Source: an uncultured bacterium (lineage in GTDB: Bacteria > Omnitrophota > Omnitrophia > Omnitrophales > Abzuiibacteriaceae). Taken from it: a DNA stretch of 64,000 nt. Numbering within the stretch: position 1 is the stretch's first letter; every line of letters begins with the position of its first letter. The stretch spans positions 345,038-409,037 of the forward strand of contig CAYLXA010000001.1 in NCBI GenBank assembly GCA_964387845.1, given 5' to 3'. Under the pieces are notes generated by a model that made no database searches, was not told where the DNA came from, and was given only the letters and a program-made list of their open reading frames with translations. The translations under genes and the position numbers were made by a program. This document shows positions 28,656-46,435 of this stretch, one piece after another.

Positions 28656-28745
28656 CAAGCTACAGGCCACAAGCTACAAGCTTAAAAGCCTGAAGCTTGC
28701 AGCCTGTGGCTTGAGACTTGAGGCTTGAAGCCTGCAGCCTGAAGC
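28656..28745. repeat. long imperfect hairpin built from AAGCTT/AAGCCT-like hexamer units
   Basis: caagctacaggccacaagctacaagctt | aagcttgcagcctgtggcttgagacttgaggcttgaagcctgcagcctgaagc; the left arm is close to the reverse complement of the right arm. Confidence 0.6.
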
Positions 28746-29070: not shown

Positions 29071-29172
29071 ATTCAAATCTCAAATTTCAAAATTCAAAAT
29101 AATTCAAATTACTAAATTCCAAATTGAAACATTTGAATTTAGAATTTGTTTTGATATTTGAAATTTGAATTT
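29071..29172. repeat. hairpin repeat family 2 (CAAATT/TCAAAT units), copy 1
   Basis: attcaaatctcaaatttcaaaattcaaaat...attttgatatttgaaatttgaatttaaaattg. Its first 22 nt are identical to the copy at 46306. Confidence 0.75.
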
Positions 29173-30844
29173 AAAATTGTCTCAAATCTTTCACTTCCAG
29201 AACGACTGACTCGATTCCATCCCATTCTTTTAATTTCGGGGAATATACAATTTCATAAGCCCCGCTCTCAGGGATCTGCTTAGGTTGAGGGTCTTTCTGT
29301 GTCCAATTGGCTTCAAACGTCGCACCATCAGCGCTCACCCACCAACGCAACGTTTGCGGGCTTGCCTGCGTAATTTTGGTTTTGGTCTGAACATTCCGAG
29401 TTAAAAATGACGGCCGCGGATTTCCGGCGCCGAAAGGCTCAAATAATTCGATTTCGCGCAAAACCGTCGGCGTTAAATCCGAAAATAAAATTTCGAGATC
29501 ATACCGAATTGATTTAGTGAAAATCACCGGCGGAATTTGCGCTGCATACTCATTGATCTTTTGCCTGAAATTCCGCAACTCACCCTCTAATATCGAAAAA
29601 CCGGCTGCCAGCTCATGGCCTCCGAACTCTTCCACGTGATCTTTGCTGAACTCAAGCGCTTCGAATAAATGAAATCCGCGCACGGAGCGGCCCGATGCCT
29701 TCCCTTTTCCATTTTCAAGCGCGATCACCAGGCTCGGGCGGTTGAAACGTTCGACCAAACGCTGCGCCACAATTCCAATCACGCCCTGATGCCAGCCTTC
29801 GGACCAAATGACAATGACTTTATCGCGGTTAAAATTAATTTCCTTCTCAACTTTTGCTATCGCCTGCCTTAAAACTTCGCGTTCTTCCTGCTGGCGTGCT
29901 TTATTTTCAGTATCCAATAATTTTGCAAGCTCATCGGCTCTTTGTTCGTCCTGAGAAATCAAAAGCTCGAGCGCTTTATCGCCCGAACTCATGCGCCCGC
30001 TGGCATTAATTCTGGGCCCAAGCATAAATCCGAGATGCGCGGAATTGATCTTGCGGGATTTGATCTTTGCCACATTGCAAAGCTTTGATAATCCGACAGA
30101 ATTTCTTTTGGATATCAATTCCATGCCGAATTTAACGATCAAACGGTTTTCATCCACAAGCGGCGCCACATCGCAAATCGATGAAAGCGCGGCCAAATCC
30201 AGAAGCGAAAGCGCAAAGCGGCCCACAAGCGCCTGCGACAATTTAAACGCAAGCCCCGCTGCGGAAAGCTCCTTAAATGGATACTGGCAGCCTTCCTGAA
30301 GTGGATTAATGATTGCGAAAGCTTCGGGCAAATTCCCGCCGTGAATCTGGTGGTGATCAATCACAATCGAATCGATGCCGGCGTTTTTTGCGGTTTTGAC
30401 TTCGTCAATCGCGGTGATGCCGCAATCTACCGTGATGATGAGCTTGGTGCCGTTTTGTGTCGCGGCTTGAACAGCATCTTCGCTGACCCCGTAGCCGTCT
30501 TTCTTGCGGTGCGGAATGAACGTATAAAATTTAGCACCGAGCTTCTTCAGGGTCAGCGCCATAATCGCAGCGCCCGTCACGCCGTCTACGTCATAATCGC
30601 CGTGAACCATGATGAGCTCTTTGCGCTCGGCAGCCTGCAGAATGCGTTTCGAAGCTTCTTTAACACCCTTCATTAAAAAAGGGTCATAAAATTGATCGAG
30701 TGCGGGAAATAAAAATTTGGAGGAGGCGGCTTCCGTATGAATCGATCGGAGCGCGAGTAATTTCGTAACAAGCGGTGAATACGACAGGGTTTCGGACGGT
30801 AAAGCAGAGCCGGAAACTTCTTTTTGCTGCCAAATGGTATGCAT
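29171..30844 (-). CDS. recJ: single-stranded-DNA-specific exonuclease RecJ
   Basis: DHH motifs (HGDYDVDGVTG, DHHQ) and the DHHA1 C-terminal domain; 557 aa. Confidence 0.9.
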   Translation of the reverse strand: MHTIWQQKEVSGSALPSETLSYSPLVTKLLALRSIHTEAASSKFLFPALDQFYDPFLMKGVKEASKRILQAAERKELIMVHGDYDVDGVTGAAIMALTLKKLGAKFYTFIPHRKKDGYGVSEDAVQAATQNGTKLIITVDCGITAIDEVKTAKNAGIDSIVIDHHQIHGGNLPEAFAIINPLQEGCQYPFKELSAAGLAFKLSQALVGRFALSLLDLAALSSICDVAPLVDENRLIVKFGMELISKRNSVGLSKLCNVAKIKSRKINSAHLGFMLGPRINASGRMSSGDKALELLISQDEQRADELAKLLDTENKARQQEEREVLRQAIAKVEKEINFNRDKVIVIWSEGWHQGVIGIVAQRLVERFNRPSLVIALENGKGKASGRSVRGFHLFEALEFSKDHVEEFGGHELAAGFSILEGELRNFRQKINEYAAQIPPVIFTKSIRYDLEILFSDLTPTVLREIELFEPFGAGNPRPSFLTRNVQTKTKITQASPQTLRWWVSADGATFEANWTQKDPQPKQIPESGAYEIVYSPKLKEWDGIESVVLEVKDLRQF

Positions 30845-30851
30845 TTTTTCA

Positions 30852-30925
30852 GCGCTAAGTGATAAGTGGTAAGTGTTAAGTAAATCGAATGACTTAACAC
30901 TTATGACTTACCACTTATCACTAAC
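30852..30925. repeat. hairpin repeat family 1, copy 2
   Basis: gcgctaagtgataagtggtaagtgttaagt...acttaacacttatgacttaccacttatcact. It shares the cattttttcag prefix with copy 3. Confidence 0.75.
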
Positions 30926-33191
30926 TTTTAGAGGATGAATCCACCACGAGCGGCCCGGCAACAAACACGGTCGAGTAAACACCGATTGCAAAACCGACTA
31001 ATAAAATAAACGAAAAATCATTCAGCGCGGGCCCGCCGAACAAGAAAATAGAGCTCACGACCAATAAAGTCGTCACGGTTGTGAGCAAACTTCGCGCAAA
31101 CGTTTGATTGATGCTGAGATTAAACACTTCGGCAATCGACAGTTTGCGCATCGATTTTAAATTTTCGCGCGCACGGTCATAAATAACGATCGTATCATTG
31201 ACCGAAAAACCGATGATGGTCAAAATCGCGGCGATCGTCTGCAGAGAAATTTCGCGGCCGCTCAACAAATAAATTCCGAGTGCAATTGTGGCGTCGTGAA
31301 AAACCATTAAAGTCGCGAAAATACCGAACCTAAAATTAAACCGGTACCAAATATAAACCAGAATCAAAAGCAGTGAAAGCGCGATGGCTTTGACGCCTTT
31401 TGTAAACAATTCCTTGCCGGCTGCAGGTCCCAAAACGTCAGACCTTCTGACCTCAAAATTTCCGGCACCGACCGATTGAGTCAGGGCATCAAAAATCGGT
31501 TTTGAATCTTCGTTTTTAGACCGAATGATGATCATATTGTCCGCAGGATCGCCGTAACGCTGAAGCTGGGCCGTCGTGACGCCTGATTGCTCAAGTGCGC
31601 TGCGGATTTTTGAAAGATCAGGAGCCGAATTCAACTTAATTTCCTGTAAAGATCCGCCCGTAAAATCAATGCCCAGGTTCTGCTCTTCGCGAGTAATAAT
31701 CACAAACAAGCTGACACCGATTAAAACCGCAGATAAAATGTAGCCGATGAACCGTTTTCCGATCCAATCAAAAGTCGGCTGCTTAATAAGCTCTATCATA
31801 TGAAGATTGAGATTGCTTTTGCCGCGCGTTAAAACGTCAAAAATGACGCGCGTCAAAAAGAGCGCCGTAAAAAGACTCGCCACAAGGCCGAGTATGAGCG
31901 TCACCGAGAAACCCCGGATTGGGCCCGAGCCGAACCATAAAAGAATCGCGGCAGCCAAAATTGTGGTCGCGTTGGAATCAAAAATTGCGGAAAACGCTTT
32001 GTGATAGCCCGCGGAAATCACGGAACGAACGGCTTTTCCGAGCTTCATTTCTTCGCGCATGCGTTCATTGATGAGCACATTCGCGTCGACAGCCATGCCG
32101 ATCGTTAAAATGATACCGGCAATACCTGGCAGCGTGAGCGACACATTGAACGCCGCAAGCAGCCCGATCAAAATAAATAAATTGGTCAGCACTGCGAAAC
32201 TGGCGATAAAACCGGAGACGCGGTAATAAATGAGCATAAATAAAATGACGAGAATTGCACCGCCGATCGATGCTTTAATGCCTTTTTCAATTGAATCTCG
32301 GCCGAGCGTGGGGCCGATTGTGCGCTGTTCAATCACCTTCACCGGAGCAGGCAAGGCGCCGGCCCTGAGAACCAGCGCAAGGTCGCTGGCCTGAGCGTTG
32401 GTGAAATTGCCGGAAATCTGGCCTTTACCGCCCGGAATCCGGTCGCGGATAACAGGCGCCGAGCGTACTTTACCGTCCAAAACAATCGCAAGCCGGCGGC
32501 CGATATTGCGGAATGTAACATCATCAAAAATTTTAGCACCTTCCCCGTCGAGCTGAAACTCCACGACCGGCTGGCCGTATTGATCAAAACCGACGGACGC
32601 GCTTTCCAAATGTTCGCCGGTCAAAACCGGTGCTTCTTCCAATAGAACCGATTCACTCGGACGCTGGTCTTCTTCCAGCTCCGCCAACTCGTAACCTGAA
32701 GGCATTGCAGCAGGAATTGATTCGGCGACTTTTTCAACTTCGGCTTTTGCGGAATCGGCAGGATTTTCTTGAGGTTTCTCATCCGCTTTTTCGGGATTTG
32801 CAGCCGCAATGGCTTGCCTTAAGAGTGCATCATCATCGCTGACAAGTTTGAATTCCAAATGCGCCGTTTGCGAAACAATGTCGCGTGCACGCAATTCATC
32901 GGTAAGGCCAGGCAGCTGGACCACAATTTCTTCGCGGCCCTGCCTCGTGATACTGGGTTCGCGGACGCCGAATTGATCAACGCGGTTCCGGATAATTTCA
33001 ACGGCACGGTCAATGGCGCCTTCGTGCTGTTTTTCCGGCAGCTTCTCCGTATCAACGCGCAGTAATAAGTGGATACCGCCTTTTAAATCAAGGCCGAGAT
33101 GGATTTTTTCTTGAGGTGGGTAAGCTGCCCACAAACATCCGCCGATCACGGCGAGTATCAGAATGACTTTCCATTTAAAATTTTTATCCAT
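30921..33191 (-). CDS. secDF: protein translocase subunit SecDF (fused)
   Basis: SecD N-terminal TM plus a large periplasmic domain, then the SecF module from FDWIGKRFIGYILSAVLIG; 756 aa. Confidence 0.9.
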   Translation of the reverse strand: MDKNFKWKVILILAVIGGCLWAAYPPQEKIHLGLDLKGGIHLLLRVDTEKLPEKQHEGAIDRAVEIIRNRVDQFGVREPSITRQGREEIVVQLPGLTDELRARDIVSQTAHLEFKLVSDDDALLRQAIAAANPEKADEKPQENPADSAKAEVEKVAESIPAAMPSGYELAELEEDQRPSESVLLEEAPVLTGEHLESASVGFDQYGQPVVEFQLDGEGAKIFDDVTFRNIGRRLAIVLDGKVRSAPVIRDRIPGGKGQISGNFTNAQASDLALVLRAGALPAPVKVIEQRTIGPTLGRDSIEKGIKASIGGAILVILFMLIYYRVSGFIASFAVLTNLFILIGLLAAFNVSLTLPGIAGIILTIGMAVDANVLINERMREEMKLGKAVRSVISAGYHKAFSAIFDSNATTILAAAILLWFGSGPIRGFSVTLILGLVASLFTALFLTRVIFDVLTRGKSNLNLHMIELIKQPTFDWIGKRFIGYILSAVLIGVSLFVIITREEQNLGIDFTGGSLQEIKLNSAPDLSKIRSALEQSGVTTAQLQRYGDPADNMIIIRSKNEDSKPIFDALTQSVGAGNFEVRRSDVLGPAAGKELFTKGVKAIALSLLLILVYIWYRFNFRFGIFATLMVFHDATIALGIYLLSGREISLQTIAAILTIIGFSVNDTIVIYDRARENLKSMRKLSIAEVFNLSINQTFARSLLTTVTTLLVVSSIFLFGGPALNDFSFILLVGFAIGVYSTVFVAGPLVVDSSSKS

Positions 33192-33194
33192 GAT

Positions 33195-33467
33195 TTACTT
33201 CCTCATATCGCTGACATGGGTGCGCAAAATTTCAAGCTTTGATTCACCTTCTCCGACTTTTATGACAACATAGTCATCTTGAAGCGTATGGATAGTTCCG
33301 ATGATACCGCCGGCCGTGACGACTTTGTCGCCCTTTTTCAGGCCCTTGATCATGTTCTGGTGCTCTTTTTGCTTCTTTTGCTGCGGGCGTATTAATAGGA
33401 AGTAAAAAATAACAAAAATAAAAATCATCGGCGCGAAGGCCATGATCGGATTTGCCTGCTGCTCCAT
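33195..33467 (-). CDS. yajC: preprotein translocase subunit YajC
   Basis: FIFVIFYFLLIRPQQKKQKEHQNMIKGLKKGDKVVTAGGIIGTI is a canonical YajC sequence. Confidence 0.9.
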   Translation of the reverse strand: MEQQANPIMAFAPMIFIFVIFYFLLIRPQQKKQKEHQNMIKGLKKGDKVVTAGGIIGTIHTLQDDYVVIKVGEGESKLEILRTHVSDMRK

Positions 33468-33479
33468 TTTAAAGTCCTT

Positions 33480-34999
<1,520 letters not shown>

Positions 35000-35005
35000 T
35001 TTTTC

Positions 35006-35082
35006 AGTTGTAAGTCGTAAGTGGCAAGTGTTAAGTTGATTGATTAACTTAGCACTTACAACTTACCACTTATCACTCGTTA
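35006..35082. repeat. hairpin repeat family 1, copy 3
   Basis: agttgtaagtcgtaagtggcaagtgttaagt...cttagcacttacaacttaccacttatcactcgttaatc. The right arm is near-identical to copy 1. Confidence 0.75.
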
Positions 35083-35083
35083 A

Positions 35084-36154
35084 TCAAATAATCAGCATCG
35101 CATCGCCATAGGAATAAAACCGGTAACGATTTTGAATGGCTGTTTGATACGCCTGTTTTAAATTTTCAACACCGCAAAATGCCGACACGAGCATGAGCAG
35201 CGTTGTCTTCGGTAAATGAAAGTTTGTGATCATCGCATCCACGATTTTAAATTCATACGGCGGATAAATAAACAAGTTTGTATCGCCCCGCTTTGGCTCC
35301 ACTTCGCACGGAATTGAATTTTTGGCGGCCGATTCGAGCGTCCGGACAACCGTTGTACCGCAGGCAATGACACGCCGGCCGGCAGTTTTGGCGAAATTAA
35401 TGAGCTCCGCGGTTTCATCCGGAATTTCAAAATATTCCGAATGCATTTGATGCTGCTCGATTTGGTCGTGAGCAACCGGCTGAAATGTTCCGTAGCCGAC
35501 ATGCAGTGTCACATAAGCAATTTGAATTCCTTTCGCTTCGATTTTTTTCAAAAGCGCTTCATCAAAATGAAGGCCGGCTGTCGGGCTTGCAACCGCACCC
35601 GGCTTACGCGCAAAAACCGTTTGATAAAGATCGCGGTCAATTTCGGAATCGGGCCTATCGATATAAGGCGGCAGCGGCACGCAGCCGATTTTATCGAGCT
35701 TTGTCTTTAAATCTCCTGTACCCTGAAATTCGAGATGGCGAATTCCGGTTGTGCCGTCAGCCGAATCTAAGACTTTTGCTTTTAGTTCAATTCCATCTGC
35801 AGAAAAATTCAAAACATGAGTTTCTTTCACGCGGCCCGAAGGTTTGAGCAGCGCTTCCCATCGATTGTTGCCTTGGTCTTTCAGCAAAAGCACTTCGACC
35901 GATCCGCCGGATTCTTTTTTGGCAAAAAGCCGTGCCGGCAGAACTTTGGTGTCGTTTAGAATCAAAAGATCGCCAGGAATCAAATAATCGAGAAGATTTG
36001 AAAAATGGCGATGCTCGATTTTGCCGCCTTCGCGGCCCAAAACCAAAAGCCGGGCTGCGGAACGTTCCGGATTGGCTTCTTGCGCAATCAACTCCTGCGG
36101 TAAAGCGTAATCGAAATCGCTTAATTTCAGCGGATAGCGTTTAGCGGATAGCAT
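35084..36154 (-). CDS. queA: S-adenosylmethionine:tRNA ribosyltransferase-isomerase
   Basis: VASPTAGLHF, LPPYI and QueA-length collinearity. Classic queA-tgt-yajC-secDF operon order. Confidence 0.95.
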   Translation of the reverse strand: MLSAKRYPLKLSDFDYALPQELIAQEANPERSAARLLVLGREGGKIEHRHFSNLLDYLIPGDLLILNDTKVLPARLFAKKESGGSVEVLLLKDQGNNRWEALLKPSGRVKETHVLNFSADGIELKAKVLDSADGTTGIRHLEFQGTGDLKTKLDKIGCVPLPPYIDRPDSEIDRDLYQTVFARKPGAVASPTAGLHFDEALLKKIEAKGIQIAYVTLHVGYGTFQPVAHDQIEQHQMHSEYFEIPDETAELINFAKTAGRRVIACGTTVVRTLESAAKNSIPCEVEPKRGDTNLFIYPPYEFKIVDAMITNFHLPKTTLLMLVSAFCGVENLKQAYQTAIQNRYRFYSYGDAMLII

Positions 36155-36314
36155 ATAGGAAAGAAAGGTGTTTCATAAATAAAACATTTTTTGGTCGATT
36201 TTTTTGATTTTTTTCTATACGCTGTACGCTATCCGCTACTCATAACGCGCCCGCCCCACAGGGGCTGGCGCTTAACTTTGATAAATAACCGTCTTGAAAT
36301 CCTAGAGTAGTTAA

Positions 36315-36388
<74 letters not shown>

Positions 36389-36544
36389 TAGCTACATTAT
36401 ATTGCTATTTGATTATTAATAAAAGCTATGCGCCAGTCCTGACTACATCAGAAAAGATTTTCAAAGTCAGGGCGGGCGACAACTTACATGGCACTTGCAC
36501 CGATGCGCAAGTGCCTGTAGTGCGAGGGTCAATGATACCCTCGC

Positions 36545-37798: not shown

Positions 37799-37845
37799 AC
37801 TGACAACTTATCCGCTAAAAAGATAAATTTCAAGGCAAAAGATGT

Positions 37846-38400: not shown

Positions 38401-38552
38401 TTTATTTTGGCGGTTGAGAGTTTTTATCTATATTTAAATAGTAGCACTCCTAGCATCAAATACTAGGACGCGCAATAAATTATCGTAAGTTATTTATTTA
38501 CAATAGCTTACGCATACTTAAAGAACCACCACAGATACAATACAAAAACAAA

Positions 38553-38590
38553 ATGCCCGAGCTTATGAGATATAAACTCGGGCATTTGTC
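38553..38590 (-). terminator. Rho-independent terminator for the peptidoglycan-binding lipoprotein gene
   Basis: atgcccgag(N)ctcgggcat 9-bp stem. On the minus strand it is followed by uuuuguuuuugu. Confidence 0.6.
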
Positions 38591-38614
38591 AAAGACTGGC
38601 GTAGAGTTCGAAGC

Positions 38615-39070
38615 TTACTTAATCACTGATGAGCCGCTGGGAAGATAAGCCTTCAACTTATCCCAGGTTTTCTTGCCGACAACACCATCCGCATGGAGTC
38701 CGTTGTCCTGCTGAAAGCGGCGGACAGCTTCGCGGCTTGTAGAACCGATTTCACCGTCAATCGCCCCGTCATAATAACCGGCCGCTTTTAAAGCTTGCTG
38801 AATGTCGGCTGCCGGAAGTTCAAATCCGGAAGGTGTCCGGTACATAATCGATCCGCCGCGAGAAGCAGAAACAGGCTTTGAACCAAAAAAGGACGGCCGC
38901 TGCTGATTTTGAGCGTCCAACCGTGCGACTTCACCGGACAAAGTCGTCACTTGAGCTTGTAAAGCGTTGACATCCCGATTGTATTTTTTCTTGGAAACGC
39001 AGCCGGTCGTGGCAATCATGGCAACAAAGCCGACAACGAGGACGATTCGAGCGGAACGATCGAACTTCAT
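38615..39070 (-). CDS. lipoprotein with C-terminal peptidoglycan-binding (PG_binding_1-like) domain
   Basis: Lipobox MIATTGC. Coiled-coil segment, then LKAAGYYDGAIDGEIGSTSREAVRRFQQDNGLHADGVVGKKTW. Confidence 0.7.
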   Translation of the reverse strand: MKFDRSARIVLVVGFVAMIATTGCVSKKKYNRDVNALQAQVTTLSGEVARLDAQNQQRPSFFGSKPVSASRGGSIMYRTPSGFELPAADIQQALKAAGYYDGAIDGEIGSTSREAVRRFQQDNGLHADGVVGKKTWDKLKAYLPSGSSVIK

Positions 39071-39174
39071 GATGAATTCTCCTTGCAGAAAGTTGAGGGT
39101 TGAGTTTTAAAAAATTTAAGAATAATGAAACCAAACGTATGATACATCAGCACTTATCAAAGTCAACGACAATC

Positions 39175-39978
39175 TCACTCAGGCCGTATGGCAAACAGCA
39201 TGAATTCCGTGTGCGATACCATGCGTTGCTCCGGCCTCGTCTTCCCCGGCCGTGCCAAAATTCCGCGCACCAAAACTTCCTGCGCTTCGATCATGATAAA
39301 GCCCGCGCGCTCCAAAGCACCGGCCATCGTTTCGATCTGATTGTAAGTGGGATTGAGACTCGCAAGCCGTCCGCCCGGACGAAGTGCTTGCTTCGCATTC
39401 TCTGCTTCATGCCACGGCTCCGGAACATCCAAAACGATTGCATCCACGCCTTCATCTTCGAAAGGTTCGTGCCCGGTGCGCGTTTTGAAAGTTACGTAAT
39501 CCGCAAGTTTTGCTTTTTTCAAATTAGCACCTGCCAATTTCATAAAATCTTCACGTACATCATAACTATAAATATGTCCGTTCGGCGCCACTTGTGATGA
39601 GAGTGCGAGCGTCAGCGCGCCGGAGCCGACGCCGACTTCGATCACTCGGCTTCCGGTTCGGATTCCGCAATGCATCATCAGCACCGCGGCGTCTTTCGGA
39701 TAAATAATTCCGCTTTCGCGCCGTGCTTTCATGATAAAATCCTCGATCGTCGGATCGAGCAGCAAAGCTTTAACGTTGGACGGTTCAAATTCGATCCAGC
39801 TACCGTAGGATTTTCCGATCAAATCCTTCAGCTTGATCGGACGGCCGCAGTGAATGCTATGGGTTTTTTCGGGATCAACCGTCACATAGTAAGTTTTATC
39901 ATCATCGAACCAAATGAGGAGCGGGTCGCCGGCTTCGATTAATCTTTTAGGAGATATGGCAGTTTCCTGAGTTGTCAT
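39175..39978 (-). CDS. tRNA (adenine-N1)-methyltransferase TrmI/Gcd14-like
   Basis: IYPKDAAVLMMHCGI...VIEVGVGSGALTLAL...LDVPEPW; SAM-methyltransferase fold with TrmI-like N-terminal beta domain. Confidence 0.8.
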   Translation of the reverse strand: MTTQETAISPKRLIEAGDPLLIWFDDDKTYYVTVDPEKTHSIHCGRPIKLKDLIGKSYGSWIEFEPSNVKALLLDPTIEDFIMKARRESGIIYPKDAAVLMMHCGIRTGSRVIEVGVGSGALTLALSSQVAPNGHIYSYDVREDFMKLAGANLKKAKLADYVTFKTRTGHEPFEDEGVDAIVLDVPEPWHEAENAKQALRPGGRLASLNPTYNQIETMAGALERAGFIMIEAQEVLVRGILARPGKTRPEQRMVSHTEFMLFAIRPE

Positions 39979-40020
39979 AGGGCACCTATCTTACTCAGGA
40001 AACCGATTGAATCAACCAGA

Positions 40021-42039
40021 ATGATCTACGACGATTTTCAGAAAAAAGCGATTGAAACGATTGATCAAAGACGCTCTTTGATCGTTTCCGCACCCACCGG
40101 CGCCGGCAAAACCGTGATAGCCGAATACGCGATCGAACAAGCGCTCGCTCATAATGAAGGCGCCATCTACACAGCACCGATTAAGGCCCTCAGCAATCAA
40201 AAATACCGCGACTTCAAAGCCAAATATGGTGACAAAATCGGCATTTTAACGGGCGACGTGTCGATCAATCCCGACGCGCCGATCTTGATCATGACCACTG
40301 AGATTTACCGCAACACTTTATTTGAAACTTCACTTTCACCGACTTCAGATCGCGCGCACGGAATAGGCGAAGGCAAGGTGAAGCCCGACCGGCTTCAAAA
40401 TACGAAATGGGTGATTTTTGATGAGGTTCATTATTTAGATGACTGGGAGCGCGGAACGGTTTGGGAAGAAGCCATCATGTTCTCGCCGCCGCATTTGGAG
40501 CTTTTGTGTTTGAGCGCCACCGTTCCCAATATTGATGAAATCACGAGTTGGATCAAAACGGTTTTAAACCGCCCGATTGAAATCATTATCGAAACTCACC
40601 GCCCCGTTCCCTTGATTCATTTGTTCCAATGCCAGGGACAAATTTTAAACAGCCAGAAGAAATTACGCGAGCAAGGCTACATGAACCGCGACGATTGGTC
40701 GCAATTCGGCGGGCGTCACGCATTCAGGCGGCGCCAGCGCGGCCACCACAACCGCAATTTCAATCACCTTCGCGCAATGCCCAACCGGATTGATAAATTG
40801 ATCGCGCATTTGAAATCAGAAAACCGGCTTCCCTGCATTTTCTTCGCGTTTGGCCGAAGGCGCACTGAAGAACTGGCGCACGAAGTGCATGTGGATTTTC
40901 TAAATGAAGAAGAACGCGGAAGAGCAGCAAAACTTTACGACGATCTCTGCATCAAATTTGGAATCGGCGATGAACAATCCGCGATGGACATGCGCGGCCT
41001 CATTGAACGCGGTATCGGATTTCACCACGCCGGCATGCTGCCCACATTAAAGGAAGTGATCGAGCAGCTTTTTACGAGCAAGCTCCTTAAAATGATTTTC
41101 ACAACCGAGACTTTCGCGCTCGGTATCAACATGCCCGCCCGCGCGGTGGTGTTTGATGAGCTCCGCAAATTCTACGGCACACATTTCGCCAATTTACGTA
41201 CGCGCGACTTCTATCAAATGGCGGGCCGCGCAGGCCGTCGAGGCATGGACAAGGAAGGTTTTGTTTATTCACGCGTCAACCCGCATCAAGTCCAGTTTCA
41301 GGAAATCGTCCGGATCATCAACGGAAAACCGGAACCCATCAACAGCCAATTCAACGCCACTTACGCGACGGTTCTCAATTTATACGCCGAACACGGCCGC
41401 GCGCTTCTTGAAATTTATCCGCGAACACTCCATCACTACCAGGCGTCCAAGAAAGGCCGCCAAAAAGCGGCGGAACTTTTGGAGCGGAAAATATTATTGC
41501 TCGGCGAAATGGATTATTTAAATGAAAAGGGATTGACCTTGAAAGGCGACTTCGCCTCCTGCCTTTACGGTTACGAACTTTTGCTCTCTGAAATGCACGA
41601 TCAAGGTTTGTTGGACGCGCAGGACCCGGCAGGGCTCGCAATTGTGCTTTCAGCGCTCGTATTTGAGCCTCGGAAAAATATTCAGCTCGATGATATGCCC
41701 AAAAAATACCGGAATTTAAATCACCATGTTGAAAGTTTCTTGCGCCGAATTCACCGGATTGAAATGAAACACCGTGTCATGCCTCTCACGAAGCAGCCTT
41801 ACTTTCATTTCGCACCGATTGTGGAAAAATGGATCCAGAAGGAAAGTTTTGACGACATTATGCGCGCAAGTCCATTGGATGAAGGTGAAGTGATTCGCTA
41901 CTTCCGGATGGTGATTCAGCTTTTGCGTGAAGTCTGGAACGCGCCGCACGCCTCAGACCGGCTCATCGCCACCGCCAAATCCGCCTTTAATCTCATCAAC
42001 CGCGACATTGTAGACGCTGAGCGGCAGTTAAGGTTATAA
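40021..42039 (+). CDS. Ski2-type DEAD/DEAH-box helicase (HelY-like)
   Basis: Walker A SAPTGAGKT, DEVH box (FDEVHYL), SAT motif, and helicase C motifs FHHAGM, QMAGRAGRRG. Confidence 0.8.
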   Translation: MIYDDFQKKAIETIDQRRSLIVSAPTGAGKTVIAEYAIEQALAHNEGAIYTAPIKALSNQKYRDFKAKYGDKIGILTGDVSINPDAPILIMTTEIYRNTLFETSLSPTSDRAHGIGEGKVKPDRLQNTKWVIFDEVHYLDDWERGTVWEEAIMFSPPHLELLCLSATVPNIDEITSWIKTVLNRPIEIIIETHRPVPLIHLFQCQGQILNSQKKLREQGYMNRDDWSQFGGRHAFRRRQRGHHNRNFNHLRAMPNRIDKLIAHLKSENRLPCIFFAFGRRRTEELAHEVHVDFLNEEERGRAAKLYDDLCIKFGIGDEQSAMDMRGLIERGIGFHHAGMLPTLKEVIEQLFTSKLLKMIFTTETFALGINMPARAVVFDELRKFYGTHFANLRTRDFYQMAGRAGRRGMDKEGFVYSRVNPHQVQFQEIVRIINGKPEPINSQFNATYATVLNLYAEHGRALLEIYPRTLHHYQASKKGRQKAAELLERKILLLGEMDYLNEKGLTLKGDFASCLYGYELLLSEMHDQGLLDAQDPAGLAIVLSALVFEPRKNIQLDDMPKKYRNLNHHVESFLRRIHRIEMKHRVMPLTKQPYFHFAPIVEKWIQKESFDDIMRASPLDEGEVIRYFRMVIQLLREVWNAPHASDRLIATAKSAFNLINRDIVDAERQLRL

Positions 42040-42041
42040 TC

Positions 42042-42078
42042 TTGAAGTCACAAACTGTGACCTCAAGATTATAAATTC
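42042..42078 (+). terminator. near-perfect hairpin immediately after the helicase stop
   Basis: tcttgaagtcacaaactgtgacctcaagatt, a 12-bp stem with one mismatch; weak T-tract. A second palindrome cggttaacacagttaaccg lies at 42097-42117. Confidence 0.45.
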
Positions 42079-42154
42079 TTAGCCCCTCCACGTACTGGAT
42101 ATTGTCCGGTTAACACAGTTAACCGAATGACCTGCTATCTAGTTTATAAATGTA

Positions 42155-43690
42155 TTAGCGACGTCCTTTATTTCGATTTCTTTTTTTGTCTTTCGTAACT
42201 TTTTCGGGTTTTGAGAGCAATTCAAAATATGGCGAAACAAAAAATAACAAAAAACTTGCAATAATTGTAAATATAAGCTCAGAAAATTTGTCCTTCAGAA
42301 GTCTTCCAAATTCATCAAATGTGAACCATCCCAAATGATTGAGTATCATAAAAATTGTAACCGTAGACAATGCACATCTTAAAAGAAAAGTGAGATATGT
42401 ATTTATAGATCTAAGACTTATTAAAGAAATCGTGAATATGCAAAATCCAATTGTAAGGAACAATATGATTAGGCTCTTTTCTGGAGTGCTTCCCCAGGCA
42501 GTGAGGCAAAACGCTATCATCACGATAGATAAAATAAGAGATTGAAGGCCAATTTCAAAATCAAAATAATATTTTTTAGCTAAAAAATAAATGCAATAAA
42601 TAAAAGAAATGGTTGATAAGATTAAGAAATATAAATTATTTGCATCGAGAATGCTAATATGCGGCTGAGCTGACCAAATTTTCAAAGAAAATTTAATAGT
42701 TAACAATAATGATAAGCTAAAAATTGAGCCAAGAAATGCATAATAGTGCAACTGCTCTAATTTTCTACTTTTGGTTCGTAAAAAGAAATTTTTATACCCC
42801 GTTAAATTACCCCATAAACATGCCAAAAGAAACGGAAGAAAAAAATCGGAATAGAATTTCTTTGATGGAACCAAGAAATCTTTGAATATTGGAATTGAAT
42901 AAACATGAATAAGCAAGAGTGTTAAAAGTGGAAAATTGCTCAACTCATAAATTTTATTTTTCAACTCTGTGTCTTTCACCAAAATATAGAGAATTCCTAA
43001 AATAAACCAATTGATGGTTAATATGCTTGAAAGCATTAGTATAATCATGTCTCCGTACAGTCCAAATCCTCCACAAGCAGAAAAAGCATAAAGAATGGGT
43101 AACAAATAATTGAATATCTTTGTTCCGCTTTCATAGATACTTAATGTGGTTATTTTAAGTCTGATCGTTTTACCTGCATAAAAATTGTCAATCAATTGAT
43201 AAAATCTGCGGAGCAAATATGACGGCAGAAGTAATGGCAATATATAGATAATGCCTTTCACAAATTCCTTATAAATATGCGTTGCAGGCATTTTATCGAT
43301 TTCGGGAAAGTATATTTCATTTGTTAAAACTGTCCAAATCAGAATCCCTACATATACAAACATTTGCGCGAAAGTTTCTATGGATTCGTAGAAATTATTT
43401 CGAAGAAACTGTTCTGAAACCAATTTATATTTTTTTAAGAACACATTCAGTAAACTGCCAACGAGAAAACACAAAGATCGATCAAGAGGAGGGATTACAA
43501 AAAGGAAAACAAAAGAAAGTGTTGCCCACCATTTAATATCTAAACCTATAAAATATACATCTCTAAAGTTATATCTAAAAAAGATAAAAATCTTATTGAA
43601 ATCCAGATATTTTGACGCAAATACATAAAAAACTATAATGGTCAGAACTATTAAATATTTTCTAATCTTGAAGATAACGTTTAGTATCAT
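42155..43690 (-). CDS. large polytopic membrane protein in a low-GC islet (Wzy/O-antigen-polymerase-like topology)
   Basis: 511 aa with at least 12 hydrophobic helices and essentially no soluble domain. Gene GC roughly 28% versus ~50% for the window. Confidence 0.55.
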   Translation of the reverse strand: MILNVIFKIRKYLIVLTIIVFYVFASKYLDFNKIFIFFRYNFRDVYFIGLDIKWWATLSFVFLFVIPPLDRSLCFLVGSLLNVFLKKYKLVSEQFLRNNFYESIETFAQMFVYVGILIWTVLTNEIYFPEIDKMPATHIYKEFVKGIIYILPLLLPSYLLRRFYQLIDNFYAGKTIRLKITTLSIYESGTKIFNYLLPILYAFSACGGFGLYGDMIILMLSSILTINWFILGILYILVKDTELKNKIYELSNFPLLTLLLIHVYSIPIFKDFLVPSKKFYSDFFLPFLLACLWGNLTGYKNFFLRTKSRKLEQLHYYAFLGSIFSLSLLLTIKFSLKIWSAQPHISILDANNLYFLILSTISFIYCIYFLAKKYYFDFEIGLQSLILSIVMIAFCLTAWGSTPEKSLIILFLTIGFCIFTISLISLRSINTYLTFLLRCALSTVTIFMILNHLGWFTFDEFGRLLKDKFSELIFTIIASFLLFFVSPYFELLSKPEKVTKDKKRNRNKGRR

Positions 43691-43706
43691 AAAAGTTTAT
43701 AATCAT

Positions 43707-44750
43707 CTAGCTCTTGTCAGTTTCATTAGATTTAGCGCGCGCGATCATTCGCTTGACCTCGGAATTCTGGTTAATTGACATTAATTTTATATCCGGATGA
43801 TCTTGAGCGAATACTCTGAAAATTTCATCCGCAAAAGCTTGGCCGATGGTTGGGACATCGGCAAAATCAAAAATCACGGTCTGAAATAACTCTACCCGCG
43901 CAAGCACTCTTTTGGCCTGAGACCTTGAAATCAGTTTGTCATTCCCATATTGAGCAAGTCTTACAGGAACCACTGTCTTCGTAAAACCATAGTCATCTCC
44001 GGAAGAAAATTTATCGAATACTTTTTTGAGAGTCCGCGAACTATGATTGCTTATTTTCATCCACACAGATGTTCCGCTTCTAAATTCTTTCTCCAAAATC
44101 CAATCTTCGGGACTGCCGAATGTGTGATTAAAATAAACTCCGCCGGATAGAATATCGAAAGAATCAAACATCCTGGATGTAAAGAAAATCCCTTCTCCCG
44201 TATGCCGTTTCGGATCTGTGGTCAGTTTGCCTTTGGAAAGTTCAAGAATTGCATGCCGTTCATCCAGCAATCCTAATTCTGTTTGGATTTTCTTAAAAAT
44301 TCCGATTCCATTATCCAACAAAGCCATTTCTGTAAATGAAGCTGTCTTTTTAATATGAGCAATGACTTCCGAGCCGCCGGAATGGTCAATCACGTTGTTG
44401 AACATTTCGGTAAACCCGTAATGCCAAATATCACGTATATTTTCCGGAATTTCGCTGAATACAGTCGAAAAATCCTTTGTCCATACAATGTCTTCCGTCA
44501 ATTCTTTTGAGACCAAATATTTTTTACGCCATTCCACAATGGGAGCCAATTTGTAAGAACTGTTCCTGGTCTGCCCAATCTGTATCAAGACATGCTCTTG
44601 TAGAAGTTTGTGGAAATGCTTATGAACCGCCTGACGCGTAATCTTAAAATGCTCTGCTGTTCGTTTGGCTATGTCAGACGGATATTTCTCAACGTTTTCT
44701 AGAATAAACCGCCTAACATCTTCTCCTCGAGCCCGAATTCTCATTTGCAA
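43707..44750 (-). CDS. HTH + GHKL-ATPase (anti-sigma/serine-kinase-like) + STAS-like (DUF4325-type) regulatory protein
   Basis: N-terminal winged-HTH-like region (ITRQAVHKHFHKLL). HATPase_c N-box EMFNNVIDHS, G1 box LDNGIGI, G2 box GEGIF. C-terminal VIFDFADVPTIGQAFADEIFRVF resembles the STAS-like DUF4325 domain. Confidence 0.65.
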   Translation of the reverse strand: MQMRIRARGEDVRRFILENVEKYPSDIAKRTAEHFKITRQAVHKHFHKLLQEHVLIQIGQTRNSSYKLAPIVEWRKKYLVSKELTEDIVWTKDFSTVFSEIPENIRDIWHYGFTEMFNNVIDHSGGSEVIAHIKKTASFTEMALLDNGIGIFKKIQTELGLLDERHAILELSKGKLTTDPKRHTGEGIFFTSRMFDSFDILSGGVYFNHTFGSPEDWILEKEFRSGTSVWMKISNHSSRTLKKVFDKFSSGDDYGFTKTVVPVRLAQYGNDKLISRSQAKRVLARVELFQTVIFDFADVPTIGQAFADEIFRVFAQDHPDIKLMSINQNSEVKRMIARAKSNETDKS

Positions 44751-44765
44751 CCTTTCCTATAATCT

Positions 44766-44817
44766 TTGTCAACCTTTGGCAGTCATATTGTCAACCATAA
44801 TACATAGATTGTCAACC
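44766..44817 (-). promoter_or_regulatory. three direct repeats of GGTTGACAA (minus-strand reading) at 21-22 bp spacing upstream of the HTH-GHKL-STAS gene
   Basis: ttgtcaacc at 44766-44774, 44788-44796, 44809-44817. Helical-turn phasing. Each contains a TTGACA -35 hexamer on the gene's strand. Confidence 0.45.
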
Positions 44818-44853
44818 AGGTATTAAAATTATATGGTAAAAATAGATAAGATT

Positions 44854-45498
44854 TTAGGCTATTAAAGAAGCGAGGAGACTGATTTTATCTATCAGAAAAT
44901 CAGGTTTTGAGGATCTAATTTCTTCTAATTTTCCGAAGCCGTAGGTGACGGCGCAAATCGGGATTTTGGCGTTTCGGGCGGTTTCGATGTCGATAGAGCT
45001 GTCGCCGATCAAGACCGCACGCTCGGCCGGAATTTTTAAATCAGCCAGAACTTTAAAGACGCCTTCCGGAGAAGGTTTTTTGGTCCGGACCGTATCGCCG
45101 CCGATTAAGATTGAGAAATATTTCTCAATACCCAAGCCTTTTAAGATCGTCCGCGAAAATCCTTCGGGCTTGTTCGTAATCACGGCCTGTTTTTTATTTT
45201 TGAAATGTTCGAGTGTATCCAAAATGCCCGGATAAAGCTTGGTGTGATCGAGCAGGTGTTCTGAGTAACGTTTCTTGAGGATTTTGAGCGCTTGATCGAA
45301 CTTATCTTCGTGTTCCTTCCCCAACAAGCCCAGTACCAAATTCTGGACGCCCTTGCCCACGCATTCGGCAATTTCAGCGCGCGATTTTTCCTTCAGGCCG
45401 AGCGTCTTGAGCATGAAGTTGCCGCCATTCGCGATGTCTTCTGAAGAATCGATGAGCGTTCCGTCCAAATCCCAAATAATTAAATCAACGGATTTCAT
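44854..45498 (-). CDS. HAD-superfamily phosphatase (phosphoglycolate phosphatase-like)
   Basis: Motif I DLDGTL, GKGV, and a KPSPEG...GDSxID motif III/IV arrangement. Confidence 0.8.
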   Translation of the reverse strand: MKSVDLIIWDLDGTLIDSSEDIANGGNFMLKTLGLKEKSRAEIAECVGKGVQNLVLGLLGKEHEDKFDQALKILKKRYSEHLLDHTKLYPGILDTLEHFKNKKQAVITNKPEGFSRTILKGLGIEKYFSILIGGDTVRTKKPSPEGVFKVLADLKIPAERAVLIGDSSIDIETARNAKIPICAVTYGFGKLEEIRSSKPDFLIDKISLLASLIA

Positions 45499-45758
45499 TT
45501 GCCGGGCTTCACGCGGTAATAAAAAACGAGGAATGTATTCACGGAGAAAAAAAGAATGTTGGAAATTCCAAACAGTTTGAACCCAAAATCAGGTGATGTG
45601 AGTGCTTTGGGCGTCATCAAAACGGTACAGAGCCATACGCCGCCGATCCAAATGAGATTCACATCATCGGAACGTTTGCGCTGGATTAAATGCCAAATCA
45701 TCGGAATATTGAAAAACGGCATTAAAAACGCCGCCCACGTGCCGATTGTGTCAAACAT
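45495..45758 (-). CDS. small 3-TM membrane protein, hypothetical
   Basis: 87 aa, three hydrophobic segments. Translationally coupled to the HAD gene (4-nt overlap). Confidence 0.4.
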   Translation of the reverse strand: MFDTIGTWAAFLMPFFNIPMIWHLIQRKRSDDVNLIWIGGVWLCTVLMTPKALTSPDFGFKLFGISNILFFSVNTFLVFYYRVKPGK

Positions 45759-46305
45759 GCTTGAGTAACTCCTTTAATTTTTCCATCGGAAGCCCGACGA
45801 CATTGGTGTAAGAACCTTTGATGTCCTTGATTAATTTGTCACCGTGCTCCTGAATTGCGTAAGCGCCGGCTTTATCCAACGGATTTACTTTCGATAAATA
45901 GTGTTTTACTGCATCATCCGGAATCTTTTTCATAACAACCGTGCTTTTGACGCACGCTTTTTTCCATTTCCGGGTCTTCAAATTAAAAAGTGCCAGTCCC
46001 GTATACACAAAATGGCGCGTACCGACGAGACTTCTGAGCATCCTGAATGCCGCTTCCTTATTTTTCGGCTTTCCGAGCAATTTTCCTTTGTGATAAACCA
46101 GCGTGTCTGCACCCAAAACAATGCCTGATTTTGAATGAATTTTCGCATGCCTTGCCTTTCCAATCGCGTTCATCACAACTGTTTTCCGCACGCCGCCCGG
46201 AAAAGTCCGTTCTTTGAATTTTGAGGGAACGATTTTGAAAGGAATTTTTGCCTGTTTTAACAATTCCCGGCGTCGTTCGGATTTGGATGCGAGATGTATT
46301 TTCAT
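45751..46305 (-). CDS. maf: Maf-like nucleoside triphosphate pyrophosphatase
   Basis: Start refined to MKIHLASKSERRRELL. VLGADTLV...GKP, FVYTGLALF and DKAGAYAIQE are Maf family motifs. Confidence 0.85.
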   Translation of the reverse strand: MKIHLASKSERRRELLKQAKIPFKIVPSKFKERTFPGGVRKTVVMNAIGKARHAKIHSKSGIVLGADTLVYHKGKLLGKPKNKEAAFRMLRSLVGTRHFVYTGLALFNLKTRKWKKACVKSTVVMKKIPDDAVKHYLSKVNPLDKAGAYAIQEHGDKLIKDIKGSYTNVVGLPMEKLKELLKHV

Positions 46306-46435
46306 AAATTCAAATCTCAAATTTCAAATATCAAAACAAATTCCAAGTTCAAATGTTCAAATTAAACCGTTTGGGATTTAGAATTTTAATATTCGAATTT
46401 GTTTTGAATTTTGATATTTGAATTTTGAATTTTAG
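46306..46435. repeat. hairpin repeat family 2, copy 2
   Basis: aaattcaaatctcaaatttcaaatatcaaaac...gaatttgttttgaattttgatatttgaattttgaattttagg. Its first 22 nt are identical to 29072-29093. Confidence 0.75.

Follow-up and report, generated by a model that had tools for sequence, protein, structure and literature searches.

The window analysed here, a 64-kb stretch of DNA (64,000 nucleotides) from an uncultured bacterium of the phylum Omnitrophota, carries two AT-rich imperfect palindromes, referred to below as family 2, that fit tightly between the coding sequences of neighbouring genes (Table 1). Copy 1 occupies the gap between the convergent stop codons of rpmB (29068-29070) and recJ (29171-29173), both of which are included in its terminal TAAA/TTTA, and copy 2 is the exact interval from the stop codon of a TPR gene (46432-46434, minus strand) to the start codon of maf (46303-46305, minus strand). 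Two non-random hairpins in these places and in this gene context had been recognized by an initial annotation of the sequence, and folding, which it had suggested as a check, agrees with it. Each copy forms a single long stem-loop whichever strand is folded, with energies on the two strands of -29.5/-34.6 kcal/mol for copy 1 and -37.0/-37.5 kcal/mol for copy 2, and with z-scores of -5.45 to -6.18; none of 200 dinucleotide shuffles was as stable for either copy. Their GC content is 17-22%, compared with 46% for the window, and among the 42-50 pairs of the stems there are 6-8 G-C and only 0-4 G-U pairs. Stability shows no consistent bias to the transcribed strand which, together with the near absence of G-U pairs, suggests a symmetry that resides at the level of DNA rather than RNA. 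The palindrome termini, TAAATTCAAAT...ATTTGAATTTA, constitute terminal inverted repeats of the whole element, as is trivially so for any palindrome. No family of Rfam 15 was found at or above its gathering threshold for the hairpins; matches resembling miRNA precursors, obtained in E-value mode, were set aside as generic (18-28 bits against cut-offs of 80-110).

Table 1. Positions of the two family-2 hairpins, their arms and the other heptamer-array hairpins of the window
Feature	Position	Strand	Description	Basis
Family-2 copy 1	29068..29178	.	111-nt imperfect palindrome, AT-rich	
Copy 1 left arm	29069..29102	+	TCAAATC TCAAATT TCAAAAT TCAAAAT	TRF period 7, period-7 scan
Exact 27-mer GAATTTGTTTTGATATTTGAAATTTGA in copy 1	29142..29168	+	reverse complement of copy 2 46317-46343	
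Copy 1 right arm	29150..29178	+	complementary heptamers, TTTGANN units	TRF, period-7 scan, folding
Family-2 copy 2	46305..46434	.	130-nt imperfect palindrome, AT-rich	
Copy 2 left arm	46306..46337	+	TCAAATC TCAAATT TCAAATA TCAAAAC	TRF, period-7 scan
Copy 2 right arm	46402..46433	+	complementary heptamer array	TRF, period-7 scan
TAAGTGN hairpin (family 1)	23171..23246	.	between convergent inositol monophosphatase gene and 221-aa gene	
ACAAGCT / AGCCTGN hairpin	28654..28745	.	divergent pepA-rpmB promoter region	
TAAGTGN hairpin	30851..30922	.	secDF stop to recJ start	
TAAGTNN hairpin	35006..35077	.	queA stop to DUF6941 gene start	
AGCGNNT hairpin	36129..36238	.	queA 5' end to tRNA-Arg (36315-36388)	

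The unit repeated in tandem, though imperfectly, in the arms of family 2 is 7 nt long (TCAAANN / NNTTTGA) and not, as originally described, a hexamer. TRF assigned them a period of 7, with 6.7-9.5 units per arm, and a period-7 scan recovered all four arms. When the window was scanned by period, ten arrays were found at period 7, none at 6 or at 8-12, one at 5 and three at 4, 7 being the sole period enriched. Each of the ten period-7 arrays is paired with a complementary one, and together they make up the arms of five hairpins, all between genes. At least five window hairpins consist of period-7 arrays, in which four types of unit occur; the pepA-rpmB and queA/tRNA-Arg hairpins bring the class to seven. 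The two family-2 copies are part of a larger class of hairpins, built from heptamer arrays and occupying gene junctions in this Omnitrophota genome, in which 64 kb contain four or more unit types and only two or three copies of each family. The earlier perception that family 2, with its two members, shares the architecture of family 1 while differing in its units holds, with period-7 arrays in both. The class is found at convergent, tandem and divergent junctions between ordinary housekeeping genes; two of the seven hairpins sit in divergent promoter regions rather than at 3' ends, and one arm of the pepA-rpmB hairpin extends into a TATAAT box.

Comparison with related genomes showed that close relatives have gained or lost elements of the class, or exchanged one for another, at their gene junctions. 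Copy 1 is missing from the recJ/rpmB junction of four relatives (L122, L124, L126 and L201/L202; RecJ 62-91% identical). The spacer measures -4, +4 and +1 nt where RecJ identity is 83%, 75% and 62%, and the 91%-identical relative has an unrelated GC-rich stretch of 58 nt in place of the 100-nt hairpin of the window. With four relatives lacking such a hairpin beside rpmB, and with the class lying at housekeeping-gene junctions, the link to highly expressed genes that had been envisaged in the initial annotation is not sustained. L122, which lacks the element, has gagacaaGCTTAAgcggc at this point, and the occupied site in the window reads gagacaaTTTTAA[...]TTAAgctacgg; TTAA may have been duplicated, although the neighbouring bases are not those of L122 and no clean target-site duplication can be defined. 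At the TPR/maf junction an orthologous hairpin is present in L198 and an unrelated GTCATTGCGAGG hairpin in L197, and the genes are separated by 3 nt in L199 and by 21 nt in L200, with no hairpin. The same variety is seen elsewhere: the secDF/recJ junction carries a CGTGAAG/CGAGATA hairpin in L122, an AGCGNNT hairpin in L202 and nothing in L126; the queA/DUF6941 junction has a hairpin of ACAGANN units in L122 and overlapping genes, with no spacer, in L202; the pepA-rpmB region has one arm in L122 and neither in L202; and a canonical GC-rich bidirectional terminator takes the place of the family-1 hairpin at the inositol-phosphatase junction of L201. Conversely, single families occur at non-homologous junctions, AGCGNNT at queA/tRNA-Arg in the window and secDF/recJ in L202, and GTCATTGCGAGG at TPR/maf in L197 and between the ICL and malate synthase genes in L201. 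Gene order over both family-2 junctions is the same as in relatives.

The arrays also change internally, and they do so in a coordinated manner. Array length changes in 7-nt steps: copies 1 and 2 differ by a 7-nt indel, and the rpmB/pepA hairpin of the window carries 7 extra units relative to L122. Moreover, the units of an array, and both arms of a hairpin, change in concert. In the L198 ortholog of copy 2 all four units in both arms have been altered together, the comparison with the window showing four compensatory A-U to G-C pair changes that are exactly 7 columns apart, one per unit. Homogenisation of units fits this pattern better than four independently selected double substitutions, and the designed look that the initial annotation ascribed to these hairpins is better read as unit slippage combined with arm-to-arm homogenisation.

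Are the two copies related to one another? Both open with TAAATTCAAATCTCAAATTTCAAA, 24 identical nucleotides in direct orientation (29068-29091 and 46305-46328), so that the identical start previously taken as a sign of kinship is real; it is not, however, sufficient. The 21-mer ATTCAAATCTCAAATTTCAAA has five matches in the window at three or fewer mismatches against 0.06 expected, all inside the four arms of the two hairpins, but the exact 21-mer is also present in 69 metagenome contigs of 26-67% GC that are otherwise unlike the copies, and hence its sharing alone proves no kinship. Arrays of four TCAAANN units occur at 120 or more loci in genomes of many phyla, and heptanucleotide repeats are described as abundant in prokaryotes and ascribed to polymerase slippage, as summarised in PMC4679880 and PMC4692102. 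It is conceivable, then, that the copies are unrelated products of local, slippage-driven expansion of similar A/T-rich heptamers that have converged through low complexity. Indeed, the best of 189 unrelated TCAAANN loci, a Roizmanbacteria hairpin, reaches a local alignment score of 95 (the next, 80), and together with the recurring 21-mer this means that part of the similarity could be convergent. We nevertheless regard wholesale convergence as rather improbable. The copy-to-copy score of 126 lies above all 189 background loci, and the inverted alignment (copy 1 minus against copy 2 plus) gives 92% identity over 110 columns, including an exact 27-mer, compared with 89% for the direct orientation and 83% self-complementarity; the loop-proximal, non-palindromic part can be aligned in one orientation only. 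The 27-mer includes non-periodic unit variants and was not found in 201 other loci (1.4 Mb), which had been gathered for carrying TCAAANN arrays, and other families are plainly present at several non-homologous junctions in these genomes. Given the full-length alignment and the absence of the 27-mer from these TCAAANN-rich loci, copies 1 and 2 are probably related. Of two outcomes that the initial annotation had held against a family, one was encountered, with no third copy in the sequence searched and two in the 64-kb window; the other was not, the similarity reaching beyond simple AT-rich repeat.

A second question is whether such hairpins are retained for what they do in RNA. They may be selected bidirectional or intercistronic terminators, or 3'-end stabilisers or RNase III sites, that insulate neighbouring genes while the sequence drifts and the stem is kept. 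This explanation would account for hairpins that span exactly from a stop codon to the next start, or from one convergent stop to the other, and likewise for the compensatory changes between copy 2 and L198, the presence of some long hairpin of differing sequence at TPR/maf, secDF/recJ and queA/DUF6941 in several relatives, and the family-1 hairpin standing where L201 has its terminator; roles in termination and mRNA stability have been proposed for REP elements (PMC3733652). We consider it unlikely. A terminator scan flagged neither family-2 hairpin: a short stem holds fewer than three G-C pairs, and a proper U-tract is missing. In several relatives the genes on either side of these junctions overlap or are 0-4 nt apart, so that no hairpin is required there. 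The two promoter-region hairpins are not at 3' ends, the near absence of G-U pairs and the lack of strand bias suggest symmetry of DNA rather than RNA, and the shared unit position of the four compensatory changes favours unit homogenisation. That the arrays serve instead as platforms for a protein that binds 7-nt repeats, the hairpin being secondary, appears very unlikely to us. On RNA the binder might be, among others, a single-strand protein of the cold-shock or S1 type, and on DNA a nucleoid protein or a regulator. Work on Beggiatoaceae has proposed that a regulator binds heptamer arrays close to start codons (PMC4679880), the activity of promoters in Nostoc responded to TTCAAAA/TTTTGAA arrays when assayed with reporters (bioRxiv 10.1101/2022.06.06.494920), and the array reaching into the TATAAT box would suit such a role. 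Yet the units of different hairpins in the same genome are wholly different (TCAAANN, TAAGTGN, AGCGNNT, ACAAGCT), which makes a single binding protein unlikely, relatives lack arrays at the same genes, and since every window array is paired with a complementary one, it is rather the duplex or hairpin that seems to matter. An artefact of metagenome assembly, in which contigs were mis-joined or low-complexity sequence collapsed, is hardly credible. A Logan short-read contig does terminate within copy 2, as would be expected, though it is no proof, if repeated low-complexity sequence were hard to assemble; this independent assembly, however, matches the 29 nt of the maf-side hairpin arm exactly, the gene order at the junctions is conserved in relatives, and analogous hairpins are found in the independent assemblies of L198, L122 and L202.

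On balance, we think it probable, though far from assured, that the two loci are paralogous, oppositely oriented copies of a non-coding palindromic repeat of ~110-130 nt that is prone to gain and loss, to slippage in 7-nt steps and to arm-to-arm correction. New copies would arise when an existing hairpin inserts into another junction, by transposition through a putative hairpin-recognising enzyme or by illegitimate recombination. Thereafter, the arrays may be altered by replication slippage of 7-nt units, with the Watson-Crick complementarity of the arms being upheld by template switching between them (quasipalindrome correction), by selection for pairing, or by both. Wedged as they are between stop and start codons, the elements would be co-transcribed and fold into long A-U stem-loops. 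At the 3' ends of mRNAs these probably form a barrier or a site of processing, and they probably mask the ribosome-binding region downstream. Any such effect on RNA would, in our view, be incidental to an element that is largely selfish or neutral, and would not explain why it exists. The total of only two family-2 copies in the sequence searched counts against this account, and a Pfam scan of ~45 window ORFs found no transposase or RAYT gene. That certain junctions are repeatedly occupied, though by differing hairpins, and that a hairpin of family 1 stands in for a canonical terminator, may also reflect selection for a structural function.

It is tempting to speculate further that heptamer palindromes are the products of a putative dedicated process operating in many phyla, and that cells use them as interchangeable insulators or terminators. 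In this scenario a recombinase or transposase specific for hairpins, or else a repair pathway, would place hairpins at stop/start junctions, swap them there and make the 7-nt units of the two arms uniform. We hold this to be a distinctly doubtful proposition. TCAAANN units and identical 21-mers do recur in Acidobacteriota, Bacteroidota, Verrucomicrobiota, CPR and others; on the side of such a process stand this recurrence across phyla, the precise stop/start fit and the replacement of a canonical terminator at one junction.

The preferred reading, that of a slippage-prone palindromic repeat, does not call for a new kind of system: the hairpins are a local example of a known, albeit poorly understood, type of bacterial repeat. 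A parallel is offered by palindromic microsatellite elements of fungal and algal mitochondria, which are likewise palindromic simple-sequence arrays that are optional between close species, and whose mobility has been inferred from that optional presence (PMC7218506, PMC4524435); being organellar, with units of (A)n/(T)n or others that are not heptamers, they provide an analogy only, with no evolutionary connection. Bacterial MITEs such as Correia/NEMIS and RUP (PMC3184786) resemble the window hairpins in being non-coding, 100-150 nt long, intergenic, co-transcribed and present or absent among relatives, with terminal inverted repeats and folding into long hairpins; in our case, by contrast, simple-sequence units make up a palindrome over the full length of the element, there is no unambiguous target-site duplication, and no IS element was seen in the 64-kb window. 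REP/REPIN sequences, families of short extragenic palindromes mobilised by RAYT transposases (PMC3733652, PMC3116915), similarly lie just downstream of genes, can supply a stop codon from their termini and vary between strains, and REPIN doublets form hairpins of ~100 nt, similar in size to family 2. However, a REP palindrome is a unique sequence of 20-40 nt whereas family-2 arms are tandem heptamers. REP/REPIN number tens to hundreds in a whole genome, the 64-kb window has two or three copies of each hairpin family, and no gene for RAYT, the IS200/IS605-type tyrosine transposase of these elements, was seen in the window. The REP tag GTAG or CGTC is absent at both ends of copy 2; a GTAG 5' of copy 1 was discounted, since it is part of the rpmB reading frame and has no counterpart at copy 2.

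Heptanucleotide repeats are the most abundant class of long simple sequence repeats (LSSRs) in many prokaryotes (Mrazek et al. 2007, as cited in PMC4679880 and PMC4692102), and the window arrays share with them a 7-nt unit repeated in tandem at least 3-4 times, over-representation of period 7 and length variation by multiples of the unit. As with LSSRs, cyanobacterial STRRs and the TAACTGA repeats of Beggiatoaceae (PMC4679880), the arrays are intergenic, often abut start or stop codons and have a sporadic, lineage-specific distribution; indeed, the TTCAAAA unit of Nostoc PCC 7120 (bioRxiv 10.1101/2022.06.06.494920) is the family-2 unit. Those arrays, however, are mostly direct and near-perfect, whereas the window units are imperfect with variants mirrored in the other arm. 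A complementary arm lies near only 1 of 37 TCAAANN arrays sampled from cyanobacteria and 18 of 95 from other phyla, compared with 10 of 10 period-7 arrays in the window.

The closest known case is that of the inverted heptamer repeats of Xanthomonas. Its GGGAATC heptamers (Rehm et al. 2015) form intergenic arrays, often as convergent opposite-strand pairs with stem-loop or cruciform potential, of which there are 75 cases in X. axonopodis pv. citri, and they are found between the same gene pairs across related species with highly variable length and sequence (PMC4692102). The window hairpins, too, are intergenic 7-nt arrays in complementary convergent pairs that are capable of forming stem-loops. 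Differences are nonetheless apparent: Xanthomonas units are G-rich with G-quadruplex potential, whereas family 2 is A/T-rich (17-22% GC) and has none; one unit dominates in Xanthomonas, whereas the Omnitrophota genome has several unit families; and, in a different phylum, whole hairpin families occur at different junctions in close relatives.

The two AT-rich hairpins that the initial annotation had placed at the recJ/rpmB and TPR gene/maf junctions are indeed present there as long imperfect palindromes (copies 1 and 2; see the table), and the identical start it had noted in both runs to 24 nt (TAAATTCAAATCTCAAATTTCAAA, at 29068-29091 and 46305-46328). Folded as RNA, either strand of both copies forms one stem-loop, with energies of -29.5 and -34.6 kcal/mol for the two strands of copy 1 and -37.0 and -37.5 kcal/mol for those of copy 2; z-scores lie between -5.45 and -6.18, and 200 dinucleotide shuffles yielded no fold as good. 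The GC content of the hairpins is 17-22% against a window average of about 46%, and the 21-mer ATTCAAATCTCAAATTTCAAA finds five matches in the window at up to three mismatches (0.06 expected), each lying inside one of the four arms. The TAA stop codons at both junctions fall within the TAAA/TTTA termini of the palindromes. Among homologues of RecJ and Maf with a named source (45-58% identical), nearly all bear the name Candidatus Omnitrophica/Omnitrophota. A contig of the maf region from an independent short-read assembly (L001, Logan SRR15237813) terminates 29 nt into copy 2 (contig positions 1-29), which is consistent with, but no proof of, heptamer hairpins breaking such assemblies.

Hairpins and other loci of the window, with three hairpins and a terminator of related genomes (positions prefixed by locus)
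Feature	Position	Strand	Units or termini	Location
Family-2 hairpin, copy 1	29068-29178		TCAAANN	the 100 nt separating the stop codons of convergent rpmB and recJ
Family-2 hairpin, copy 2	46305-46434		TCAAANN	TPR gene stop to maf start, both genes on the minus strand
Family-1 hairpin	23171-23246		TAAGTGN	inositol monophosphatase/221-aa gene, convergent
Family-1 hairpin	30851-30922		TAAGTGN	secDF/recJ
Family-1 hairpin	35006-35077		TAAGTGN/TAAGTNN	queA/DUF6941
Further hairpin of the class	28654-28745		ACAAGCT/AGCCTGN	pepA-rpmB divergent promoter region
Further hairpin of the class	36129-36238		AGCGNNT	between queA and tRNA-Arg, divergent promoter region
AGCGNNT hairpin	L202 5170-5275		AGCGNNT	secDF/recJ
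Non-heptamer hairpin	L197 9885-10003		GTCATTGCGAGG	TPR/maf
Non-heptamer hairpin	L201 5390-5490		GTCATTGCGAGG	isocitrate lyase (ICL)/malate synthase
Bidirectional terminator	L201 7955-8035			inositol monophosphatase/221-aa gene
GC-rich hairpin, -60 kcal/mol	1886-1982		CCCTCTCCC...GGGAGAGGG	
GC-rich hairpin, -37 kcal/mol	25712-25782		CCCTCTCCC...GGGAGAGGG	malate synthase/isocitrate lyase
Cytochrome gene region	217-9039			left end of the window
Two-gene island	42155-44750	minus		between HAD and DEAD/DSHCT helicase genes
701-aa ORF	48881-50986			between AddA-like helicase-nuclease and histidine phosphatase genes
Riboswitch aptamer	58063-58137	plus		upstream of ORF run 58214-63515

The hexamer units proposed for these hairpins have to be given up: Tandem Repeats Finder returns a period of 7 in all four family-2 arms, and a scan for periodicity across the entire window, used instead of a fold-based hairpin catalogue (unbranched, at least 26 pairs) that proved too permissive, found ten arrays of period 7 and none of period 6 or of periods 8-12. 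All ten arrays are paired arms of five intergenic hairpins. By the same scan, family 2 has the architecture of the other hairpin family first described (family 1) with another unit type, as had been suggested. At the pepA-rpmB region (28654-28760) one hairpin arm, with AGCTTGT units in the pepA sense, leads straight into a TATAAT box; the related locus L122 has the same arm and box, seven units of the opposite arm being missing, and L202, from a relative with a 91% identical RecJ, has unrelated sequence. The longest 'rpmB' ORF there, 107 aa from 28747, has a Pfam L28 match that begins at residue 24 and is probably over-extended, with ATG 28813 or GTG 28832 the likelier start.

The shared start is not evidence for a family by itself. 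The 21-mer ATTCAAATCTCAAATTTCAAA is present without mismatch in 69 JGI metagenome contigs (GC 26-67%), none of which resembles the window copies past the heptamer array, and these matches in unrelated contigs rule it out as a family marker. A scan for TCAAANN x4 with one genome per species found at least 120 loci, the matches listed belonging to Cyanobacteria, Bacteroidota, Patescibacteria, Acidobacteriota, Verrucomicrobiota, Planctomycetota, Chloroflexota and others. Words of this kind thus originate many times, and 20-mers common to heptamer elements of this kind should not be taken as homology. The minus strand of copy 1 aligns with the plus strand of copy 2 at 92% identity over 110 columns, including an exact 27-mer, and this head-to-tail alignment takes in the loop-proximal, non-palindromic part; identity in direct orientation is 89%, and the self-complementarity of each copy 83%. 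Low complexity inflates every similarity measure, and the control is purely empirical: the two copies score 126 in local alignment, against 95 and then 80 for the best matches among 189 of these loci that served as background. The 27-mer includes non-periodic unit variants and has no occurrence in 1.4 Mb of loci picked for TCAAANN arrays. Taken together, a score above background and the shared 27-mer uphold a real two-member family, whose copies are probably, if not provably, paralogues by common descent. No third copy was found in the 64-kb window, which is part of a 409-kb NCBI contig.

Comparison with related genomes, based on metagenome assemblies, covers both junctions. Where the window has its 100-nt hairpin between recJ and rpmB, the genes overlap by 4 nt in L122 (RecJ 83% identical), are spaced by 4 nt in L124 (75%) and by 1 nt in L126 (62%), and are separated by an unrelated 58-nt GC-rich stretch in L201/L202. 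Since these spacers lack the family-2 hairpin, copy 1 is a recent gain in the lineage of the window, one that also altered the last residue of RecJ, which ends in ...QF in the window and ...QA in L122. The suggested tie to highly expressed or ribosomal protein genes is not borne out, the relatives having no such hairpin next to rpmB. The TPR/maf junction of L198 (Maf 83% identical) holds a collinear hairpin of TCGAAAN units, L197 (81%) has an unrelated hairpin with GTCATTGCGAGG termini, and L199 (75%) and L200 (61%) have spacers of 3 and 21 nt. A three-way alignment reveals four compensatory changes from A-U to G-C pairs between copy 2 and the L198 hairpin, exactly seven columns apart and one per unit in both arms.

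Hairpin families also change place between junctions. The AGCGNNT hairpin lies at queA/tRNA-Arg in the window and, with nearly identical arms, at secDF/recJ in L202, and L197 carries the GTCATTGCGAGG hairpin at TPR/maf, whose place in L201 is the ICL/malate synthase junction. The secDF/recJ junction carries the TAAGTGN hairpin in the window, a CGTGAAG/CGAGATA hairpin in L122 and none in L126; queA/DUF6941 carries a TAAGTNN hairpin in the window and an ACAGANN hairpin in L122, and the genes overlap in L202. A 7-nt indel separates copies 1 and 2 of family 2, and one arm of the rpmB/pepA hairpin has seven units more in the window than in L122. Period-7 arrays are far fewer per kb in the relatives than in the window. 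The class is one of palindromic elements made of 7-nt units whose array length shifts by whole units. The elements are gained, lost and exchanged at junctions over the divergence of genomes with 80-90% identical proteins, and their units and arms evolve in concert.

Two hairpin families of other composition occur alongside. The form GTCATTGCGAGG...CGAAGCAATCT...AGATTGCTTCG...CCTCGCAATGAC is a non-heptamer family of two related Omnitrophota genomes (L197, L201). The two GC-rich hairpins of the window are 86% complementary to each other and make up a third family; where one of them fills the malate synthase/isocitrate lyase junction, L122 has an 11-nt spacer and L201 a different hairpin.

The main rival explanation, that the hairpins are terminators, insulators or processing sites, we consider unlikely, even though they fit exactly from stop to start, some hairpin recurs at the same junctions in relatives, and the convergent site that in L201 bears a GC-rich, bidirectional terminator of textbook type (A-run, GGGGGCG stem, T-run) holds a family-1 hairpin and no such terminator in the window. 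The hairpins lack canonical features of intrinsic terminators, the scan for which flagged neither family-2 copy and found no enrichment of terminator or promoter patterns, and a search of Rfam matched no known RNA family. Two class members, moreover, lie in divergent promoter regions, and several relatives have no spacer at all at the same junctions. All of this argues against an essential role. Whatever the origin of the hairpins, the A-U helix of 45-50 bp predicted from the TPR stop to the maf start would probably influence how stable the 3' end is and how accessible the maf initiation region. Strand-specific selection on RNA left no consistent signal in G-U pairs, which number 0-4 of 42-50, or in energy asymmetry; the near absence of G-U pairs and the lack of strand bias in stability fit a DNA-level process. 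CRISPR, retron, tRNA-derived and coding origins were rejected for these AT-rich palindromes outside conserved ORFs, there being no spacers, reverse transcriptase gene or tRNA similarity. The window ORFs scanned include no transposase, RAYT or defence genes.

Heptanucleotides have been known since 2007 as over-represented long simple repeats in many bacteria (Mrazek 2007, as summarised in PMC4679880 and PMC4692102). The closest precedent is the GGGAATC heptamer repeat of Xanthomonas, which often forms convergent pairs capable of a stem-loop and sits at the same gene pairs in related species with extensive variation (PMC4692102). Beggiatoaceae have TAACTGA arrays (PMC4679880), and in Nostoc PCC 7120 arrays of TTCAAAA/TTTTGAA, the family-2 unit, lie near start codons and affect reporter expression (bioRxiv 10.1101/2022.06.06.494920). 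A complementary arm is nearby for 1 of 37 cyanobacterial TCAAANN arrays and 18 of 95 from other phyla among the matches listed, against all ten of the window's period-7 arrays. REP/REPIN elements and MITEs are functional analogues. The GTAG/CGTC tag that defines the former (PMC3733652) is absent from the window hairpins, no RAYT was found in the window, nor a parent IS for a MITE, and a possible TTAA target duplication at recJ/rpmB has differing flanks. On this comparison the hairpins are best classed as intergenic heptanucleotide repeats in inverted-pair form in Omnitrophota, rather than as REP or MITE. The repeat type is already known and unexplained; the turnover and concerted evolution seen here are informative about it.

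Mutation by template switching from one arm of a quasipalindrome to the other is a known process, and could hold the arms complementary with or without selection for pairing. Dispersal would proceed by copying of an existing hairpin into a new junction, through transposition by a putative enzyme or illegitimate recombination, which would account for one family at non-homologous sites. Units may turn over by replication slippage, to which the excess of heptanucleotide repeats has been ascribed (Mrazek 2007, as summarised in PMC4679880 and PMC4692102). Fast hairpin turnover, families at non-homologous junctions and concerted units limit the models to slippage, arm-to-arm correction and dispersal. 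Close relatives permit direct comparison of empty, filled and differently filled junctions, a compact case from an uncultured phylum. In practice, the elements supply stop codons, alter C-termini (RecJ) and inflate ORF calls (the 107-aa 'rpmB').

Elsewhere in the window, a low-GC (31-39%) island encodes a 511-aa ORF without Pfam or PADLOC match and a 347-aa DUF4325 (STAS-like) protein; the flanking genes abut in L198, L197 has a 1910-aa glycosyltransferase gene there, and the site has the look of a variable hot spot for insertions. The 701-aa ORF, also without Pfam or PADLOC match, has as its counterpart in L197 and L198 three sugar-modification genes (GFO_IDH, epimerase, DegT). A c-di-GMP-I-GGC riboswitch aptamer (62.9 bits, exceeding the gathering score) precedes ORFs without Pfam match, and the left end carries genes for cytochrome c biogenesis (ResB, CcsA-like) and multihaem cytochromes (NapC/NirT-type, c554-type).
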